DNA of 32,000 nucleotides from Geotalea daltonii FRC-32 (GCF_000022265.1 NC_011979.1:3090001-3122000), one strand, 5' to 3'; positions 7,209 to 32,000 are shown, counted from the first letter of the stretch. Numbers and translations are program-made. The notes: generated by a model from the letters alone, not told the origin.

Positions 7209-7283
<75 letters not shown>

Positions 7284-11038: not shown

Positions 11039-11113
<75 letters not shown>

Positions 11114-11222: not shown

Positions 11223-11309
11223 GCCGGAGTGGTGAAATTGGTAGACGCACTGGACTCAAAATCCAGCGGGAGCAATCCCATGCCGGTTCGACCCCGGCCT
11301 CCGGCACCA
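11223..11309 (+). tRNA. tRNA-Leu (anticodon CAA), long variable arm, CCA encoded
   Basis: The sequence is GCCGGAGTGGTGAAATTGGTAGACGCACTGGACTCAAAATCCAGCGGGAGCAATCCCATGCCGGTTCGACCCCGGCCTCCGGCACCA. The acceptor stem is GCCGGAG/CTCCGGC and the anticodon loop is CTCAAAA. Confidence 0.95.
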
Positions 11310-25795: not shown

Positions 25796-26197
25796 TCACC
25801 GCGCCAACTGCATAATCTGGTTGAGCCGGGCGCAGCATTCGGCAAACAGGTGGTCATCAAGGCGCTTGAGCGGGTGCGGCGCTCCATTGCGGATGCGCCA
25901 GTCAAAGGACTTGGGCTGGTGACAAAGGACATAGCTTGTTTTGCCGGTTTTTTTACCCTTGGCAAGACCGATGGCAACGGCAAAGGGGTTGTCGGAATTA
26001 TATTCCGCGGTGGTCATGGGAAGACCGATTACCAATGATGTCCGCTCGTTGAACGTCTGTGGCGAGATAACCAGAAACGGGTGAATGTCCCGCATTTCGT
26101 TGCCTGCCTGCGGGTTGCAGTTTATCCAGATGATATCCTGCCGGTCCGGAACCCACGGCTGCTTGCCGCCCGGCACCATTTTGAGCGGCTTTACCAT
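25796..26197 (-). CDS. mazF: Type II toxin, PemK/MazF family endoribonuclease
   Basis: 133 aa. PDRQDIIWINCNPQAGNEMRDIHPFLVISPQTFNERTSLVIGLPMTT is the typical MazF/ChpB core. The start overlaps the mazE stop (ATGGTAA). Confidence 0.85.
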   Translation of the reverse strand: MVKPLKMVPGGKQPWVPDRQDIIWINCNPQAGNEMRDIHPFLVISPQTFNERTSLVIGLPMTTAEYNSDNPFAVAIGLAKGKKTGKTSYVLCHQPKSFDWRIRNGAPHPLKRLDDHLFAECCARLNQIMQLAR

Positions 26198-26454
26198 TTT
26201 TCCGCGCCCAACGGTTCGACGGTCATTACTTCGCCGCCATGTTTTGCGGGATCAAACAGAGCAAGCCGCTGCTCAAGAGTCAGTTCCAACCCGTCAACCG
26301 GCGTGATGGTCACGGTGCCGTCATCGACGGAAACACGCACCATCTGATCGGGATGTAAATGAGCGGCTTTCGCCACATTTGCCGGCAAGCGAACCCCCAG
26401 ATTGTTGCCCCATTTTTTTATGCCAAGAACGGCTTCAACATGTGCCATGATCAA
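26191..26454 (-). CDS. mazE: Type II antitoxin, AbrB/MazE/SpoVT family
   Basis: 87 aa. IKKWGNNLGVRLPANVAKAAHLHPDQMVRVSVDDGTVTITPV matches the swapped-hairpin MazE/ChpS pattern. The RBS AGGAGG lies upstream. Confidence 0.85.
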   Translation of the reverse strand: MIMAHVEAVLGIKKWGNNLGVRLPANVAKAAHLHPDQMVRVSVDDGTVTITPVDGLELTLEQRLALFDPAKHGGEVMTVEPLGAEKW

Positions 26455-26569: not shown

Positions 26570-26938
26570 TTACGCTGCCGATAACCCATCATCTGCAACG
26601 ATCAGCATTTCCAGGTCGACTTTGAGGGTGCGGGCTATCTTATGCAGGAGTGTTACGGAAGATTTTCGTTTTCCAGATTCGATCTGGGAGATGGCGGCTG
26701 CGGTTACGCCGCACGCTTTTGCCAGGTCGGCCGCCGACAGGCGGCGGTATTCCCTCCAGACGCGAATTGGGTTCTCGCCATCCAGCAGGCGATCGACCAC
26801 CTCCGAGGGAATGACTTCTTCCTCTCCGGCGGCAAGGGCTTTAGTTGCCGAATCGAAGGCCCTCACGTCGGCCGGCATTTCCGCATCCGCCAGCAGGCTC
26901 CGGTATTCATCATAAGGTATGACGGCATATTCTTGCAA
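26570..26938 (-). CDS. XRE-family HTH protein, antitoxin-like (N-terminal extension plus Cro/C1 HTH)
   Basis: I prefer the TTG start at 26938 (M)QEYAVIPYDEY.... The HTH is LSAADLAKACGVTAAAISQIESGKRKSSVTLLHKIARTLKV. The longer ORF-track form (to 27019) overlaps the upstream pseudogene. Confidence 0.7.
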   Translation of the reverse strand: MQEYAVIPYDEYRSLLADAEMPADVRAFDSATKALAAGEEEVIPSEVVDRLLDGENPIRVWREYRRLSAADLAKACGVTAAAISQIESGKRKSSVTLLHKIARTLKVDLEMLIVADDGLSAA

Positions 26939-26993
26939 TCCTGACCCGAAAGGTCCCCCCAAAGATTCTACCCTACCTTTTTCCCTTCGGCAT

Positions 26994-27312
26994 TTATACG
27001 GCCGTAACGGTTGTGTCAATCCTCACGTGCATGGCCTTTTTAATGGTGGCGAAGATGGCTGCCAGGTTCTCCATTGTCGGGTTTCCGGAAGCGGAAAGCA
27101 TGCGATGGAGGCTTTTGCTCGGTTTGTGAACCTCTTCGGCCATGCGCTCGAAGCCGACCGTCGCGTTGATCAGGTCGCGCAAGATCAGTTTTGCAGTCGC
27201 GGAGTCACCATCCAGCAAAAGCTCAATTGCCTCGTTGAGCAGCGCTTTGGCAAAATCAGGGTCTTGTTCCGCCCTCTTCTTGATAGTCTCTTTAAAGTCT
27301 CGTCAGAGCCAT
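26994..27312 (-). pseudogene. HTH transcriptional regulator/antitoxin-like gene disrupted by an apparent 2-nt deletion after codon 5
   Basis: ATG at 27312 reads MALTR then L-stop. Shifting by 2 nt gives DFKETIKKRAEQDPDFAKALLNEAIELLLDGDSATAKLILRDLINATVGFERMAEEVHKPSKSLHRMLSASGNPTMENLAAIFATIKK..., a family I recall as starting MALTRDFKET. Confidence 0.6.
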
Positions 27313-27765: not shown

Positions 27766-28134
27766 TCATTCACTGTTAAGCCCAGCCGCCACATTCCTAA
27801 AGGAGGTTAACGCCGCTTCCAGGTGCTCGATTATTTCTGTTGCAAGGACGTCAGGCGGTGGCAGCTCATCCAAGTTATCCAGACTATCGTCCTTTAGCCA
27901 GAAGATATCGAGGCTGGCCTTGTCACGGGCAATGAGCTCATCATAGGTGAAATACTTGAAGCGCTCAGCTTCCTTGCGTTCGTGCCTATTCTCCGGGTTG
28001 TAACAGGTAATGAAGTCTTTTAGATCATCCTCTTTCAGTGTTCTGGTTTTCAGCGTGAAGTGCTTGTTTGTGCGGAGGTCATAAAACCAAATTCCATTGG
28101 TGTGTATTGACGACCGACTCACCCCGGATGTCAA
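27766..28134 (-). pseudogene. hsdM: 3'-terminal fragment of a type I restriction-modification methyltransferase gene (HsdM C-terminus only)
   Basis: GIWFYDLRTNKHFTLKTRTL...DKASLDIFWLKDDSLDNLDELPPPDVLATEIIEHLEAAL matches the conserved HsdM tail as I recall it for EcoKI-type HsdM (WVYDLRTN, LDISWLKD, LPEPDVLAAE). The methylase catalytic and SAM-binding part is absent upstream. Confidence 0.8.
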
Positions 28135-28170
28135 TATACTTTTCAGGACGATAATGGACGATAGATGAAC

Positions 28171-28199
28171 AAAAAGCCCTGATTTCTCAGGGCTTTTTG
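28171..28199. terminator. Perfect bidirectional rho-independent terminator at the hsdM truncation junction
   Basis: AAAAAGCCCTGA-TTTC-TCAGGGCTTTTT is a 9-bp stem flanked by A5 and T5. Confidence 0.7.
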
Positions 28200-28491
28200 T
28201 ACTGCTCCGGTCCTTACCGGACCTTTAATTGGGGGTGGCGACTATAGAACTGGCTGCCTAAGTGATTGTATAATAATAATTTTTGTTATGCCATATTGAA
28301 CGACTACCCCCAAATATACCCCCAACGTTTGTCCTTAACCTCTTTCCCTTTCGTAAAAAATAGCGCTCCTCATGGCAGGATTTGATTGTTCTGCATGCTG
28401 AGATGTCGCGTCCGGATGATTTTGCCATATAGCAGTAGAGCCTTGACTGCTTCACGGTAGTAAGGTGCCAATGGCGTACAGTATGGGAATT

Positions 28492-29310
28492 TTATTTTCC
28501 CAGCGGTACCTGTTGATTCTTCTTTGCCAAATATGATGCAATGGCGCAAGACATTCCTACTATGAGTTCTGCTTCGTCAAAAGAAGGATTGCTAGTTTCC
28601 CGTAGATGACGTGCGTTTTCGGAAGCGAATCCCCAAGCCTTTGAAACAGCATCATCAAGAGGGCGTGGAATCAGCCCAGCATATCGCTTCATAATATCAC
28701 CGAGAGTGGCCTTCTTATCGCCACAGGCCTCTCTTGCAACACACTCCATTGCGGCCATTGAATGCTGAATTGCTCCAGTAATATCAGGCACAGGACGTCG
28801 CGATAGATCGTGAAGTGACTCTTTCAACTCGTTTTTAGCCACAAAGAAGCCTGATCCTTGAAGCTGTTCAACGGCATTGTGAAATGTCTGCTCAAAGGTA
28901 GCGGGACCTCTTATCTCAATACCTGCTTCTGTAAGTTTCCAACCAATCCCATTTTCGATGAAGTATTCATTCATTTCATACTGAAATTTCTCGGGTGCAT
29001 ATGAAAAAGGTGTCTCGTTCATACATTGCGCGATTCCCTCGATTACATCATAAACGCGAAACCACTCACAATTGTCTATCAACTCACGAACTTCCCTGTC
29101 AATATTCGGGTATTCAGACCAGTTGCTCGTGTCGGGTCTCTTTCTGAGGATGCCGCACAAAAGAGAACGAAGGTTTGAGGGACCAAAACCGCATTGATAT
29201 GCAACTTGGATTACGACACCACGCAGTTCATGGGGGGCATCTTCTCGAACTGTGATTTCAGCCTCGGAAGCCTGACGATAACCAAATCTTTTTGAGAACA
29301 AATCACTCAT
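28492..29310 (-). CDS. Abortive-infection-type protein (AbiJ-NTD4-like N-terminus, Abi_C/HEPN-like C-terminus); family label tentative
   Basis: 272 aa. The N-terminus MSDLFSKRFGYRQ... resembles the AbiJ N-terminal-domain-4 pattern (MxxFSxRxGy). The C-terminus AMECVAREA...KAWGFASENARHLRE is helical and recalls Abi_C/HEPN, but without a clean Rx4-6H motif. Confidence 0.6.
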   Translation of the reverse strand: MSDLFSKRFGYRQASEAEITVREDAPHELRGVVIQVAYQCGFGPSNLRSLLCGILRKRPDTSNWSEYPNIDREVRELIDNCEWFRVYDVIEGIAQCMNETPFSYAPEKFQYEMNEYFIENGIGWKLTEAGIEIRGPATFEQTFHNAVEQLQGSGFFVAKNELKESLHDLSRRPVPDITGAIQHSMAAMECVAREACGDKKATLGDIMKRYAGLIPRPLDDAVSKAWGFASENARHLRETSNPSFDEAELIVGMSCAIASYLAKKNQQVPLGK

Positions 29311-29331
29311 GACTTCACCTTCAATTCCTGA

Positions 29332-30201
29332 TTACGCTGCTCCGTTGCCTTCGGCAGCCTTCTCTTGAATCTGCTTCAACGTCTCCCCTTTGCTGTTCTT
29401 CCACTCAATTCTGCCGTTAGCACTTCTCCCAAGAGCAACACCTGCAGCGGTTGAAGGAGAGTTAAAAAAGTAGTCTTGAGTAAATTCTAAAACATCTCCT
29501 TTTTCGGTAAGCACCCCGGTCTCTCGCAATTCACGCCTAAGAACAGACATATAGTGATGGATTGAAGGTACTTCCGCCTTCACTGCCTGCGACCCTTCTT
29601 TAATATTGAATCCTTCGGGAGATTCATAGCCAGTGGCCTTTATCCCTTTCGATTCTAATGTCAGTAGCTGGTGTTTCCCTACGTTCGTTGACTCGACTCT
29701 CTGGAAGGCACTGAGGCCGACCAAAGGAAAGATGCTGAGCATGTCCTCCAAAAAACTTTCCACATCTGCAACTTCTGCTTCGGAAAGGGAAGGATTCTGT
29801 GGCTCATTGAGATTGTCGAAAAATGACCTCTTAGCTTCCCGCGCTATACGAACTAGCTGTGCTTCCAGATGCTGCACATGCGCCTTGTTCAGCGATCGAT
29901 CTTTCGAGACGAAAAACATGGCCCAAGTCCAAAAGTCTTTTTTCGAAAAATGTTGCTCAAGTCGCCCCTTAACAGGATCTCCTTCACCAATGTAAATCCT
30001 TGGCAGCTCACCCTCTTCTGATGGTCCTACCAGCACATATACGCCCGTTTCCTGAAATTCATCTCTTTTCTTGATGTCGGGGAGTAATGAGCGTGGAAAA
30101 ACAACGCCTCGCCCAGTCCAGTTTGACTTGTCAACAATGCGAAGCCCGTCAGGTTGGCCATAAGGCAGGAATATCTTGATCGAAAATGGTCTTTCTGGCA
30201 T
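29332..30201 (-). CDS. GIY-YIG nuclease family protein with DUF4357-like C-terminal domain
   Basis: 289 aa. It has GVYVLVG...RIYIGEGDPVKGRLEQH...FWTWAMFFVS...VQHLEAQLV (GIY-YIG core). The C-terminal ...FNSPSTAAGVALGRSANGRIEWK fits DUF4357. The RBS GGAGG lies upstream. Confidence 0.8.
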   Translation of the reverse strand: MPERPFSIKIFLPYGQPDGLRIVDKSNWTGRGVVFPRSLLPDIKKRDEFQETGVYVLVGPSEEGELPRIYIGEGDPVKGRLEQHFSKKDFWTWAMFFVSKDRSLNKAHVQHLEAQLVRIAREAKRSFFDNLNEPQNPSLSEAEVADVESFLEDMLSIFPLVGLSAFQRVESTNVGKHQLLTLESKGIKATGYESPEGFNIKEGSQAVKAEVPSIHHYMSVLRRELRETGVLTEKGDVLEFTQDYFFNSPSTAAGVALGRSANGRIEWKNSKGETLKQIQEKAAEGNGAA

Positions 30202-30210
30202 TTCGCCTCC

Positions 30211-30949
30211 TTAGATCATCAACATTTCAAATGGTGCAGTTTTTATAACTTTAGTCTGATATGCAATATGGTCCTTACTAGCAGCAAAATACACCAGGGA
30301 GGTTTTTGTTGCATCTTCCCTCAGAATCACCCGAACTCCCAGATCTGGCTTCGATGGCACCAGTGCTATACCCCCTAGCCCGGCGCTTTTTGCGCCTATC
30401 ATCAAGCCAGGATCAATCACCATACCATGTAAGGTTTCACCAGTAGCCAGAACCCAGTTCAGCCAGTCCATCTCACTTGAACTCATGGGTCCAATGCTTG
30501 CTTTTGCTTCTTCTTCAACTACCTTATCACCCTTTATAACCTGAGCAAGGGCGACCATAAGAGCATTAGTACGGACCCTCTCGTCCCGTTCTTCGCTCGA
30601 CTCCTGATATGGCTTTTTCAATGTAACGCGGATGCCACTGTCCCAGGCAAGCCAGAGGATTAGACCTTTTAGCCGGGCCAATTCATCAGCGTCAGCCAAA
30701 TCTTCAGATGGGTAGATAATAGAATTTGGTGCCTCGAAAAGATTCCTCGCGATACCCGAGGCAGTCTTCGCTCCACTTGTTGCGATGGTGGCAGCAACAG
30801 TTCCATTCGGACTTACTGCATCAAAAGTCAAAATAGCCACCGGACGTCAAAAGAATCCTTTCTCGATAAAACGGCATGCCGAACTGCTTCTGCATCCATT
30901 CACGACGGACCCAATCTTCGACTTCTAATTGCACCCTTGTGTCAGCCAC
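30211..30949 (-). pseudogene. Hypothetical protein gene with a frame break (42 codons from GTG 30949, then the 209-codon ORF 30211..30840)
   Basis: GGAGG lies 6 nt before GTG 30949. Frame A reads VADTRVQLEVEDWVRREWMQKQFGMPFYRERILLTSGGYFDF-TGA and frame B continues (A)ILTFDAVSPNGTVAATIATSG.... The frames overlap at 30821-30840, which contains two 4-nt homopolymer runs. This could be a sequencing error, in which case the gene is an intact CDS of about 245 aa. Confidence 0.55.
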
Positions 30950-30965
30950 TCACAACCTCCACATT

Positions 30966-32000
30966 TTATGTCGTAAGCTCCGTCAGCAATGCTTCAAGCT
31001 TTGCTGGCTCCTGCATGATGGTTAATGTCAGATTTCTGATAATATTATTTGCTTCAGGGGGATTTTCGTCAGCAATTTTTAGCTGCAGCTCCTGCAGCTC
31101 AGAACCAATATCAACAGTTGTTGCTTGAATTGAGCCTCTACGTATCTGTCCTCGAAGACTGTTTTTATAAGAACGTGTTTGCATTTTGAATTCAGATGTC
31201 CAGCGACTGGAAAGGTTGATCAACCGATCGAGCCTCTTAACTCGTTCAGTGTGCTCAACTGCCGTTGGCATTATCTTAATCTGCGTCATCTGGTGACGTG
31301 GCTCAAAACATCCATGGGCTGAACGGAACACCGGGTGAAACCATTCATCAAACGCATTCCCTGCATTATCCCAAACGGGTTTTTCTCCTTTATTTGCTCG
31401 TTTATTACAATCATGGCAAATGGGGATAAGATTGTGTGATGCTGTAGATAGCCCCGGGAAGTGTTTCTTCGCAATCCAGTGGTCTACTTCTGGAGATACG
31501 AATGGACCATCGCACAATATGCATGATCTTTCACCATGTTCAGCTTTAAATGCATCAGCAAACGATTGCCTGTTAACACCTCCTGCTGCAACAGGATCTC
31601 CATTTTGATCAAAAGGTACGCCCTCCCCTAGCCCTTTATTGTAAAACTCTATCAAAAGCTCTTTAACTGCGTTCCAACCATCATCACTACAAACCGGTTT
31701 AATTGGCCAAGCTGGAGGAGGATTCTGAAACTGATTTGCCGTATTGTTACTCGCATCCAACCAACAAACTAAGCTGTTTTTTTCCGTCACCGACAGAGCC
31801 GCGATTGTTATTGCTCTGGAAAGCAAAGTCTTTTCTTTATGTTCTTTATTAAGAAATGCGACCAACCAATCACCAACAATAGGGCTTGCATGCAAGGCAC
31901 GCAAATTAGCTGCAGTGACATCCGCTGCAACACGAGTTGCCTCGCACAACCAAAGGATGAGACTTGTTTGAAGAGAATGACAAGCGTCAAGTGCTGGCTG
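30966..32000 (-). CDS. HNH endonuclease-domain protein, 5'-partial (the frame is open to the right edge of the window)
   Basis: The HNH core is CILCDG...EVDHWIAKKHFPGLSTASHNLIPICHDCNKR (about 31398-31523). I checked by hand that the frame has no stop between 31949 and 32000 (QPALDACHSLQTSLILW...), so the ORF-track TTG start at 31949 is probably not the true start. Confidence 0.8.
   Translation of the reverse strand, partial: QPALDACHSLQTSLILWLCEATRVAADVTAANLRALHASPIVGDWLVAFLNKEHKEKTLLSRAITIAALSVTEKNSLVCWLDASNNTANQFQNPPPAWPIKPVCSDDGWNAVKELLIEFYNKGLGEGVPFDQNGDPVAAGGVNRQSFADAFKAEHGERSCILCDGPFVSPEVDHWIAKKHFPGLSTASHNLIPICHDCNKRANKGEKPVWDNAGNAFDEWFHPVFRSAHGCFEPRHQMTQIKIMPTAVEHTERVKRLDRLINLSSRWTSEFKMQTRSYKNSLRGQIRRGSIQATTVDIGSELQELQLKIADENPPEANNIIRNLTLTIMQEPAKLEALLTELTT

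Follow-up and report, generated by a model that had tools for sequence, protein, structure and literature searches.

The 32,000-nucleotide (nt) stretch of the Geotalea daltonii FRC-32 genome examined here (GCF_000022265.1, NC_011979.1:3090001-3122000; "the window" in the following) ends in four closely packed genes on the minus strand, for which an initial annotation made from the sequence alone had proposed one uncharacterized multi-nuclease system directed against phages. Our findings make it probable that the four genes instead lie at the far end of a defence island that was acquired horizontally and in which independent modules have been collected behind a type I restriction-modification (R-M) operon. 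Gene 1, encoding an HNH protein, is found at 30966..>32000 in the open reading frame (ORF) listing and on reading of the minus strand, and it runs past the end of the window. The ORF listing further gives gene 2 in two parts, 30821..30949 (42 amino acids, aa) and 30211..30840 (209 aa), gene 3 for a GIY-YIG/DUF4357 protein at 29332..30201 (289 aa) and gene 4 for an AbiJ-NTD4 protein at 28492..29310 (272 aa), all on the minus strand. The intergenic spacers measure exactly 16, 9 and 21 nt, and GGAGG ribosome-binding sites precede genes 2 and 3, as initially described; these sites are situated 7-8 nt 5' of the two starts. Folding revealed an intrinsic terminator on the same strand, 3' of gene 4, at 28168..28223, consisting of a double hairpin and a U-tract (minimum free energy -33.9 kcal/mol, z = -6.3, equalled by none of 200 shuffles). 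Given the common strand, the short spacers and the presence of this sole strong terminator after gene 4, the array is very probably co-transcribed, in line with the operon that had been suggested. With 46.1 %, the G+C content of the four-gene stretch is below that of positions 1-27500 (51.2 %) and below that of all other 3.5-kb segments of the window (48.1-53.7 %). A drop in G+C had been noted before and is real, but it is smaller than the estimated 35-45 % against 50-60 %.

The neighbourhood upstream of gene 1 became accessible through Logan contig SRR29904085_140610, whose sequence agrees with window positions 28105-32000 at 100 % identity over 3,896 nt. The complete HNH gene encodes 353 aa; its start codon lies 27 nt (nine codons) past the end of the window, which holds the 1,035 nt of its 3' part. 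On the contig, the gene is preceded in this order by genes for HsdR (908 aa), HsdM (818 aa), HsdS (644 aa) and an AAA_21/ABC ATPase (574 aa), such that HNH is the final gene of an hsdR-hsdM-hsdS-ABC ATPase-HNH operon. Neighbouring genes overlap by 4 nt (hsdM/hsdS), 1 nt (hsdS/ATPase) and 8 nt (ATPase/HNH), the latter two contig ORFs being located at L001 6458-8182 and L001 8175-9236, respectively. A PtuA-like ATPase, for which a look upstream had been advised, is thus indeed present and, because of it, gene 1 is placed into an ATPase-HNH pair of the Septu/PDC-M01 architecture. Among the PADLOC models, the ATPase matches PtuA best (2e-29), followed by AriA, HEC-01A and PDC-M01A, and its Walker A (GLNGSGKS), signature (SDGE) and Walker B (LLLLDE) motifs are intact. 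The best match among PDB sequences is PtuA from retron I-A (1.8e-5, C-terminal lobe only). A retron as the upstream partner of the PtuA-like ATPase was ruled out, as hsdS abuts the ATPase gene. The HNH core recognized initially is confirmed by Pfam (HNH, 3.1e-6) and by the motif series CILC...DH...CHDCN, with CILC at residue 169, DH at 182 and CHDC at 204 of the full-length protein. Its best PADLOC match is PDC-M01B (8e-13), then PDC-M62B and PtuB (2e-5).

In Septu, the ABC ATPase PtuA and the HNH protein PtuB form an oligomeric complex, defence requires the Walker and HNH motifs, infected cells cease growth, and both nicking of DNA and cleavage of tRNA-Tyr have been described as activities (PMC12819146, PMC13096335). 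The pair in Geotalea shares with Septu and PDC-M01 the two-gene layout of co-directional, overlapping genes for an ABC ATPase and then an HNH protein, the three ATPase motifs together with PtuA as the best profile and PDB match, and the CxxC…DH…N…CxxC beta-beta-alpha-Me core. Because motifs and gene architecture are shared, the same ATPase-HNH logic as in Septu is our best guess. There are also differences. The HNH protein is 353 aa long with an N-terminal region of ~150 aa, and it matches neither solved PtuB nor any other solved structure in searches against PDB sequences; members of the PtuB family combine the HNH core with a helical C-terminal domain that docks on PtuA's C-terminal extension; of these parts, the HNH core is recognized here. 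Furthermore, the pair is joined to a type I R-M operon. We use "Septu-like" for the architecture of what appears to be a divergent pair and not as a statement of membership.

Searching with the ATPase by tblastn led to a plasmid of Pantoea agglomerans (NZ_CP134740.1; L180 1891-12094), annotated as carrying genes for a helicase (HsdR), a methyltransferase, a specificity subunit, an AAA ATPase and a 365-aa hypothetical protein. This five-gene module retains the hsdS/ATPase and ATPase/HNH overlaps, and its ATPase-HNH pair matches the same PADLOC models as the pair from Geotalea. Identities between the two organisms amount to 87 % for HsdR, 75 % for HsdM, 35 % for HsdS, 61 % for the ATPase (residues 1-535) and 20 % for HNH, the two HNH proteins being related with a pairwise E of 2e-11 and aligned CxxC…DH…N…CxxCN motifs. 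When relatives of the HNH protein itself were sought in plasmids and viral contigs, none was found; the Pantoea homologue surfaced solely via the ATPase. The low identity of HNH next to that of HsdR, together with the end of ATPase similarity at residue 535, suggests that the C-terminal tail of the ATPase and the HNH protein have been swapped as a unit. What lies downstream (3') of the Pantoea HNH gene is limited to ORF fragments resembling insertion sequences and to unrelated genes; homologues of genes 2-4 are absent. hsdR-hsdM-hsdS-ATPase-HNH is thus a conserved five-gene unit that ends at HNH and is common to Desulfuromonadota and an enterobacterial plasmid. That the Pantoea copy stops at HNH speaks against a single system extending into genes 2-4. 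Two properties of the R-M proteins in the Geotalea operon may be mentioned in passing: Pfam domains cover only residues 1-473 of the 818-aa HsdM (encoded in the L001 2071-6458 region), leaving a C-terminal extension of ~345 aa to which no domain is assigned, and HsdS is long with its 644 aa.

Gene 2 is a pseudogene and not a fourth component, because it consists of fragments of two unrelated genes that have been fused and, on top of this, carries a frameshift. One extra T in a T-run at 30826-30823 (GAC TTT TGA, 30829-30821) creates an in-frame TGA at 30823-30821. This frame break, already noted in the initial annotation, is real because it is identical in the independent Logan assembly (100 % identity over the 3,896 nt covered), which rules out a sequencing error as its cause. 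The frame was mended by deletion of one T of the run and the product was used as a query. Its residues 1-65 are ~70-83 % identical to a family of ~147-aa proteins that forms about 670 clusters, and the remainder matches only Geob_2864 itself, which is the NCBI gene for the 3' piece, and one 338-aa protein, P0002. The 5' piece (30754..30949, minus strand) represents codons 1-65 of the ~147-aa family; it is 83 % identical to residues 1-65 of the family member P0003 and keeps all residues invariant in the family up to G65. The 3' piece (30211..30753, minus strand) represents the C-terminal ~180 aa of a P0002-like protein, with 59 % identity to P0002 residues 154-336, to which residues 61-243 of mended gene 2 align in pairwise comparison. 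The two are joined in frame at a K..SG microhomology (30754-30768), and neither piece has a match in Pfam. What is left in gene 2 amounts to 45 % of one parent gene and roughly half of the second, plus the frameshift.

An exhaustive HMMER search of 1.84 billion representatives yielded 79 relatives of the P0002 domain (50 % clustering). In all 79, the domain forms the C-terminal end of proteins of either 310-340 aa or ~850 aa, and none of the 79 carries the N-terminus of the 147-aa family. The ~850-aa relatives are fusions of a PLD protein with the P0002 domain (P0362-P0364), and P0002 itself is encoded by the last gene of an overlapping trio (L004 7545-11017) for proteins of 309, 516 and 338 aa, of which the 516-aa protein contains PLDc_2 and is similar to ZacB, PDC-M27B and DrmC. 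Intact genes of the 147-aa family stand alone, either among toxin-antitoxin genes or beside dnaN/dnaA. Gene 2 is therefore a deletion scar, testifying to a PLD-type module that has been lost. The deletion, with an estimated size of at least 3 kb, would have brought the 5' 45 % of a gene for a 147-aa protein together with the 3' half of the gene that closes the PLD system, and a +1 frameshift would have been added.

Formally, GAC-UUU-UGA resembles a +1 recoding site, since the Phe-tRNA can re-pair in the +1 frame beside the stop codon. Programmed frameshifting is nevertheless unlikely, because the resulting product would still be missing more than 50 % of either parent protein, and an intact chimera is not to be found among billions of proteins. 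Both parents of gene 2 are noteworthy in their own right. The PLD-type trio (P0002, P0361-P0366) is an uncatalogued candidate system, and its L004 copy resides in a defence island together with Mrr, SIR2_2 and DUF4365 genes. The ~147-aa family (P0003-P0120; L005 8001-8438, L007 8001-8450) exhibits a mean column identity of 66 % across phyla and an invariant N-terminus, MADT..Q...EDWV...WM...GG.FDFDAV, and it has no match in Pfam or PADLOC.

Gene 3, annotated by NCBI in Geotalea daltonii FRC-32 as "GIY-YIG domain nuclease, putative", matches PADLOC PDC-S14 over its full length (7e-101, residues 4-284 versus profile positions 23-315 of 320). The GIY-YIG and DUF4357 domains recognized at the outset both stood up to scrutiny. 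DUF4357 is detected by Pfam at the C-terminus (5.3e-23). It is weakly similar to the R-M-associated RAMA domain (0.0057) and presumably binds DNA. The Pfam GIY-YIG match stays below threshold (13.5 bits, cut-off 22.6 bits). G53-V-Y55, Y70-I-G72 (within YIGEG), R80, H84, N105 and E113 are invariant in 20 homologues, and an AlphaFold2 model (pLDDT 84) shows the beta-beta-alpha-beta-alpha core of GIY-YIG domains with strands 53-58 and 68-74, helix 77-86, strand 93-99 and helix 106-123. A Foldseek comparison of the whole two-domain model with the PDB gave no meaningful match, and profile searches of gene 3 as well as gene 4 against PDB sequences returned nothing. The protein probably acts as a nuclease on DNA, with the C-terminal domain providing the targeting. 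With other members of PDC-S14, it has in common the full-length match, the GIY-YIG plus DUF4357 architecture and the location in or beside type I R-M operons; it differs in being parted from hsdS by the ATPase-HNH pair and the pseudogene, while many members follow 2-15 nt after hsdS.

Gene 4 (Geob_2862) was initially described as a protein with an AbiJ-NTD4-like N-terminus and a helical, HEPN-like C-terminus. The first part of this description holds: Pfam AbiJ_NTD4 is matched with 2.3e-29 and the domain is present in 20 of 20 family members. PADLOC assigns the protein to PDC-S32 over its full length (9e-27, residues 5-266 versus profile positions 10-282 of 285). In the AlphaFold2 model (pLDDT 87), the C-terminal domain is indeed helical, and it is strongly conserved. 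A relationship to HEPN proteins, on the other hand, could not be demonstrated. HEPN proteins are the best folds retrieved by Foldseek from the PDB, but with E values of 0.3-3 (best 0.32, target TM 0.44). None of 20 family members matches Abi_C or another HEPN family of Pfam at E≤10, the Rx4-6H motif is absent from the family alignment, and hhalign against the HEPN domain of Ymh resulted in a probability of 0.3 %. Because the fold matches are weak, and with two Pfam searches and hhalign negative, we dropped the HEPN label. AbiJ N-terminal domains have been proposed to sense phage components and to release a toxic C-terminal effector (Anantharaman et al., PMC3710099). In the succession of an N-terminal AbiJ-NTD4 and a conserved helical C-terminal domain, gene 4 resembles AbiJ from L. 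lactis and SadR from S. aureus. Instead of an Abi_C/HEPN match or an Rx4-6H motif, however, its family features the invariant blocks DLSRRP, QH, ECVAR and ASENARH (RR171-172, QH182-183, ENARH231-235), and the effector may not be an AbiJ-type RNase. Like PDC-S32 in general, gene 4 is a stand-alone gene from a family that is sometimes found at the end of R-M operons. Its closest homologue (77 % identity, L009 5165-12233) overlaps an upstream gene for a 195-aa protein by 4 nt. There, a co-directional run of unannotated genes ends with Ymh-type HEPN and DUF6998 proteins and is located beside an SbcCD-like Metallophos/SMC pair; L009 may thus provide a different multi-gene context for the gene 4 family.

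The families of genes 3 and 4 comprise 3,030 and 1,367 clusters, respectively, and are conserved at ~60 % identity across bacteria and archaea. Recurrence of the four-gene neighbourhood, which would be expected for one system, was assessed for 80 gene 4 loci from distinct species, each with up to 8 kb of flanking sequence, and for 89 gene 3 loci. None of the 80 gene 4 loci contains a homologue of gene 3, of HNH, of the ATPase or of either gene 2 parent. Likewise, neither gene 4 nor a detectable relative of the window's HNH protein occurs in any of the 89 gene 3 loci. Even the nearest relatives, at 77 % identity for gene 4 and 84-86 % for gene 3, reside in unrelated neighbourhoods. Unbiased clustering of flanking ORFs returned no neighbour of gene 4 present in more than five of the 80 loci, and the only recurrent neighbours of gene 3 are HsdR (25 loci), HsdS located 2-15 nt upstream (22 loci) and HsdM. 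By tblastn, type I R-M subunits were identified in 30 of 65 gene 3 loci (46 %), in agreement with the original remark that GIY-YIG/DUF4357 genes ride on R-M loci, and in six of 79 gene 4 loci (8 %). Because the search for co-occurrence came out negative and R-M subunits alone recur, genes 3 and 4 are to be viewed as riding independently on R-M operons, a habit that is strong in gene 3. This agrees with their listing by PADLOC, where PDC-S14 and PDC-S32 are both single-gene candidates. The PDC sets comprise 145 untested candidates that were picked because of their location within loci for BREX, DISARM or type I R-M (bioRxiv 10.1101/2024.01.29.577857). With the HNH-ATPase pair of the Septu/PDC-M01 type, gene 3 in PDC-S14 and gene 4 in PDC-S32, three of the four genes can be assigned to catalogued entities, and these assignments, the negative co-occurrence data and the chimeric nature of gene 2 argue against the four genes as one uncharacterized system, in ways that the initial annotation had itself named as refuting its proposal.

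In two gene 3 loci, part of the gene order around gene 3 is encountered again. In L162 (1995-8487), hsdM, hsdS, a canonical ptuA (8.7e-179), a canonical ptuB (6.5e-91) and gene 3 follow each other, all overlapping or abutting, with gene 3 only 5 nt on. L181 (1-9441) contains hsdS and genes for an ATPase (599 aa), an HNH protein (358 aa), a 163-aa protein, a 524-aa protein, an 886-aa PLD protein, a gene 3 product 86 % identical to that of the window, and a CxxCxxCC protein. The ATPase-HNH pairs of L162 and L181 are only 27-31 % identical to the pair in Geotalea, compared with 54-86 % for gene 3. The PLD proteins are distantly related and similarity at the DNA level between these two loci and the window is confined to gene 3. 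We considered L181 as the undeleted ancestor of the array in the window and rejected it on account of this restriction of DNA similarity to gene 3, of the 163-aa gene not belonging to the 147-aa family and of the distant PLD relationship. The idea that, in L162, gene 3 takes the place of the nuclease that partners the ATPase was discarded as well, given that canonical ptuB is situated between the two. The recurrent layout suggests that modules settle independently at favoured positions of hsd operons, on which they ride.

Against this background, we regard independent modules behind a type I R-M operon, at the end of a horizontally acquired island, as a well-founded explanation for the window's four-gene stretch. 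The HNH protein would be the nuclease half of a Septu-like ATPase-HNH module that is linked to hsdS by translational coupling and shares the mobility of hsdRMS as part of a five-gene unit. By analogy with Septu, an oligomer of the ATPase may hold and regulate HNH, the release of which upon infection would lead to cutting of DNA or tRNA and stop phage growth. Gene 3 would provide a stand-alone accessory GIY-YIG nuclease of the kind typically encoded within type I R-M operons or at their end, with DUF4357 binding DNA. For gene 4, the published AbiJ model predicts that the N-terminal domain senses a phage cue and frees a toxic C-terminal effector, here possibly the conserved helical domain with its uncertain, non-canonical HEPN-like nature. 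The biochemical activities and the defence phenotype of all modules are, in this explanation, predictions from family membership and architecture. The arrangement conforms to the defence genes embedded in type I R-M, BREX, DISARM and Hma loci (Payne et al., 2024) in that several unrelated modules have been inserted into an hsd operon or added to it, all on one strand, and in that three of them belong to families catalogued by virtue of embedding. Many Septu and PDC systems are embedded in another defence locus, just as the ATPase-HNH pair is here. The locus in Geotalea goes further by stacking at least three modules and the scar of a fourth, the PLD system, behind a single hsd operon. Several observations sit less comfortably with independent modules of catalogued kinds. 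Tight spacing, a common strand and a single terminator imply that the genes are probably expressed together, and cross-talk is possible. L162 and L181 repeat the order hsdS→ABC ATPase→HNH→…→gene 3, which exceeds the expectation for a purely random mosaic. The ATPase and HNH match the Septu/PDC-M01 profiles over their catalytic cores only (positions 252-403 of 527 in the PtuA profile and 23-95 of 216 in PDC-M01B), and HNH shows no sequence match to solved PtuB structures. Finally, the effector domain of gene 4 has neither a canonical Rx4-6H motif nor a Pfam HEPN match.

Among other explanations, the ATPase-HNH pair, possibly with gene 3, could be subordinate to the type I R-M enzyme as a PrrC- or PARIS-like guard that is triggered once restriction is blocked, in place of an autonomous Septu-type system. 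In Geotalea as in Pantoea, the stop of hsdS and the start of the ATPase gene overlap; the five genes are carried jointly from one phylum to another, and canonical Septu occupies the same position after hsdS in L162. PrrC is reported to occur nearly always within type I R-M loci, and embedded defences often contain ABC ATPases (bioRxiv 10.1101/2024.01.29.577857), which fits a guard function. Septu, however, is mostly found outside such loci and works alone, and embedding is also common for autonomous systems. PrrC, the classic embedded case, depends functionally on the R-M enzyme. We consider a guard function unlikely; if true, it would extend the PrrC/PARIS principle to HNH and GIY-YIG effectors. 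A related and somewhat less probable idea is that the layout hsdS→ABC ATPase→HNH→(PLD module)→GIY-YIG/DUF4357, as seen in the window, L181 and L162, constitutes an integrated multi-layer system coupled to R-M. The R-M complex would then restrain the Septu-like pair and/or the GIY-YIG nuclease, which would fire when a phage blocks restriction.

It is also very doubtful that the cassette as a whole is degenerating, as had been suspected, with all four genes being non-functional relics like the HsdM fragment described below. The frameshifted fusion of fragments in gene 2, that C-terminal HsdM fragment just downstream and a G+C content unlike that of the surrounding genome could be taken as signs of decay. 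Still, HNH and the products of genes 3 and 4 are full length for their families and have kept all family-invariant residues, genes 3 and 4 match their PADLOC profiles end to end, and upstream, hsdRMS and the ATPase gene are intact, the latter with complete motifs. Because these other three genes are intact, the cassette in its entirety is not decaying, and the possibility of independently decaying fragments, which the initial annotation had raised itself, applies to gene 2 only. Least probable of all is one integrated multi-nuclease system of either the four genes or the ATPase-HNH pair with genes 3 and 4, for instance one sensor serving several nucleases: the common strand, 9-21-nt spacers, Shine-Dalgarno sequences, missing internal terminator and repeated hsdS→ATPase→HNH→…→gene 3 order would suit it, but gene 2 is a chimera that has died, gene 4 is in no case accompanied by any of the others, co-occurrence is 0/80 and 0/89, the ATPase-HNH pair appears in only two of the gene 3 loci examined versus R-M genes in 30/65, and the 27-31 % identity of the pairs against 54-86 % for gene 3 is as expected if gene 3 had landed in R-M loci independently.

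The main value of these observations is a corrective one, as tight packing of nuclease genes on the same strand is not evidence for a single system. Extension of the contig combined with testing for co-occurrence split the cassette into catalogued modules and a pseudogene. What remains is an ordinary defence island made up of known or catalogued kinds, with the ATPase-HNH pair as a divergent variant, and a worked example of how type I R-M operons gather and exchange accessory defence genes.

The island's flank on the side of the core genes is in agreement with this setting and with the horizontally acquired defence-island context that had been proposed, including a type I R-M remnant and a toxin-antitoxin module nearby. 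The remnant is a C-terminal HsdM fragment of ~120 aa at 27766..28134 on the minus strand (PADLOC MTase_I 3.6e-34, profile positions 361-479 of 487). It derives from another type I HsdM and is the trace of an R-M locus that is older and has been disrupted. A MazE/MazF pair (26191-26454 / 25796-26197) and a gene for an HTH_3 protein (26570-27019) are placed between the core genes and the island. An Rfam scan of the window detected nothing but three tRNA genes, at 7212-7283 (minus strand), 11041-11113 (minus strand) and 11223-11306 (plus strand), all of them distant from the cassette. Logan contig SRR29904085_140610 ends at window position 28105, within the second HsdM fragment and just past the terminator. 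This end would fit either an hsdM sequence that is repeated at another site of the genome or the boundary of an old insertion or recombination event.

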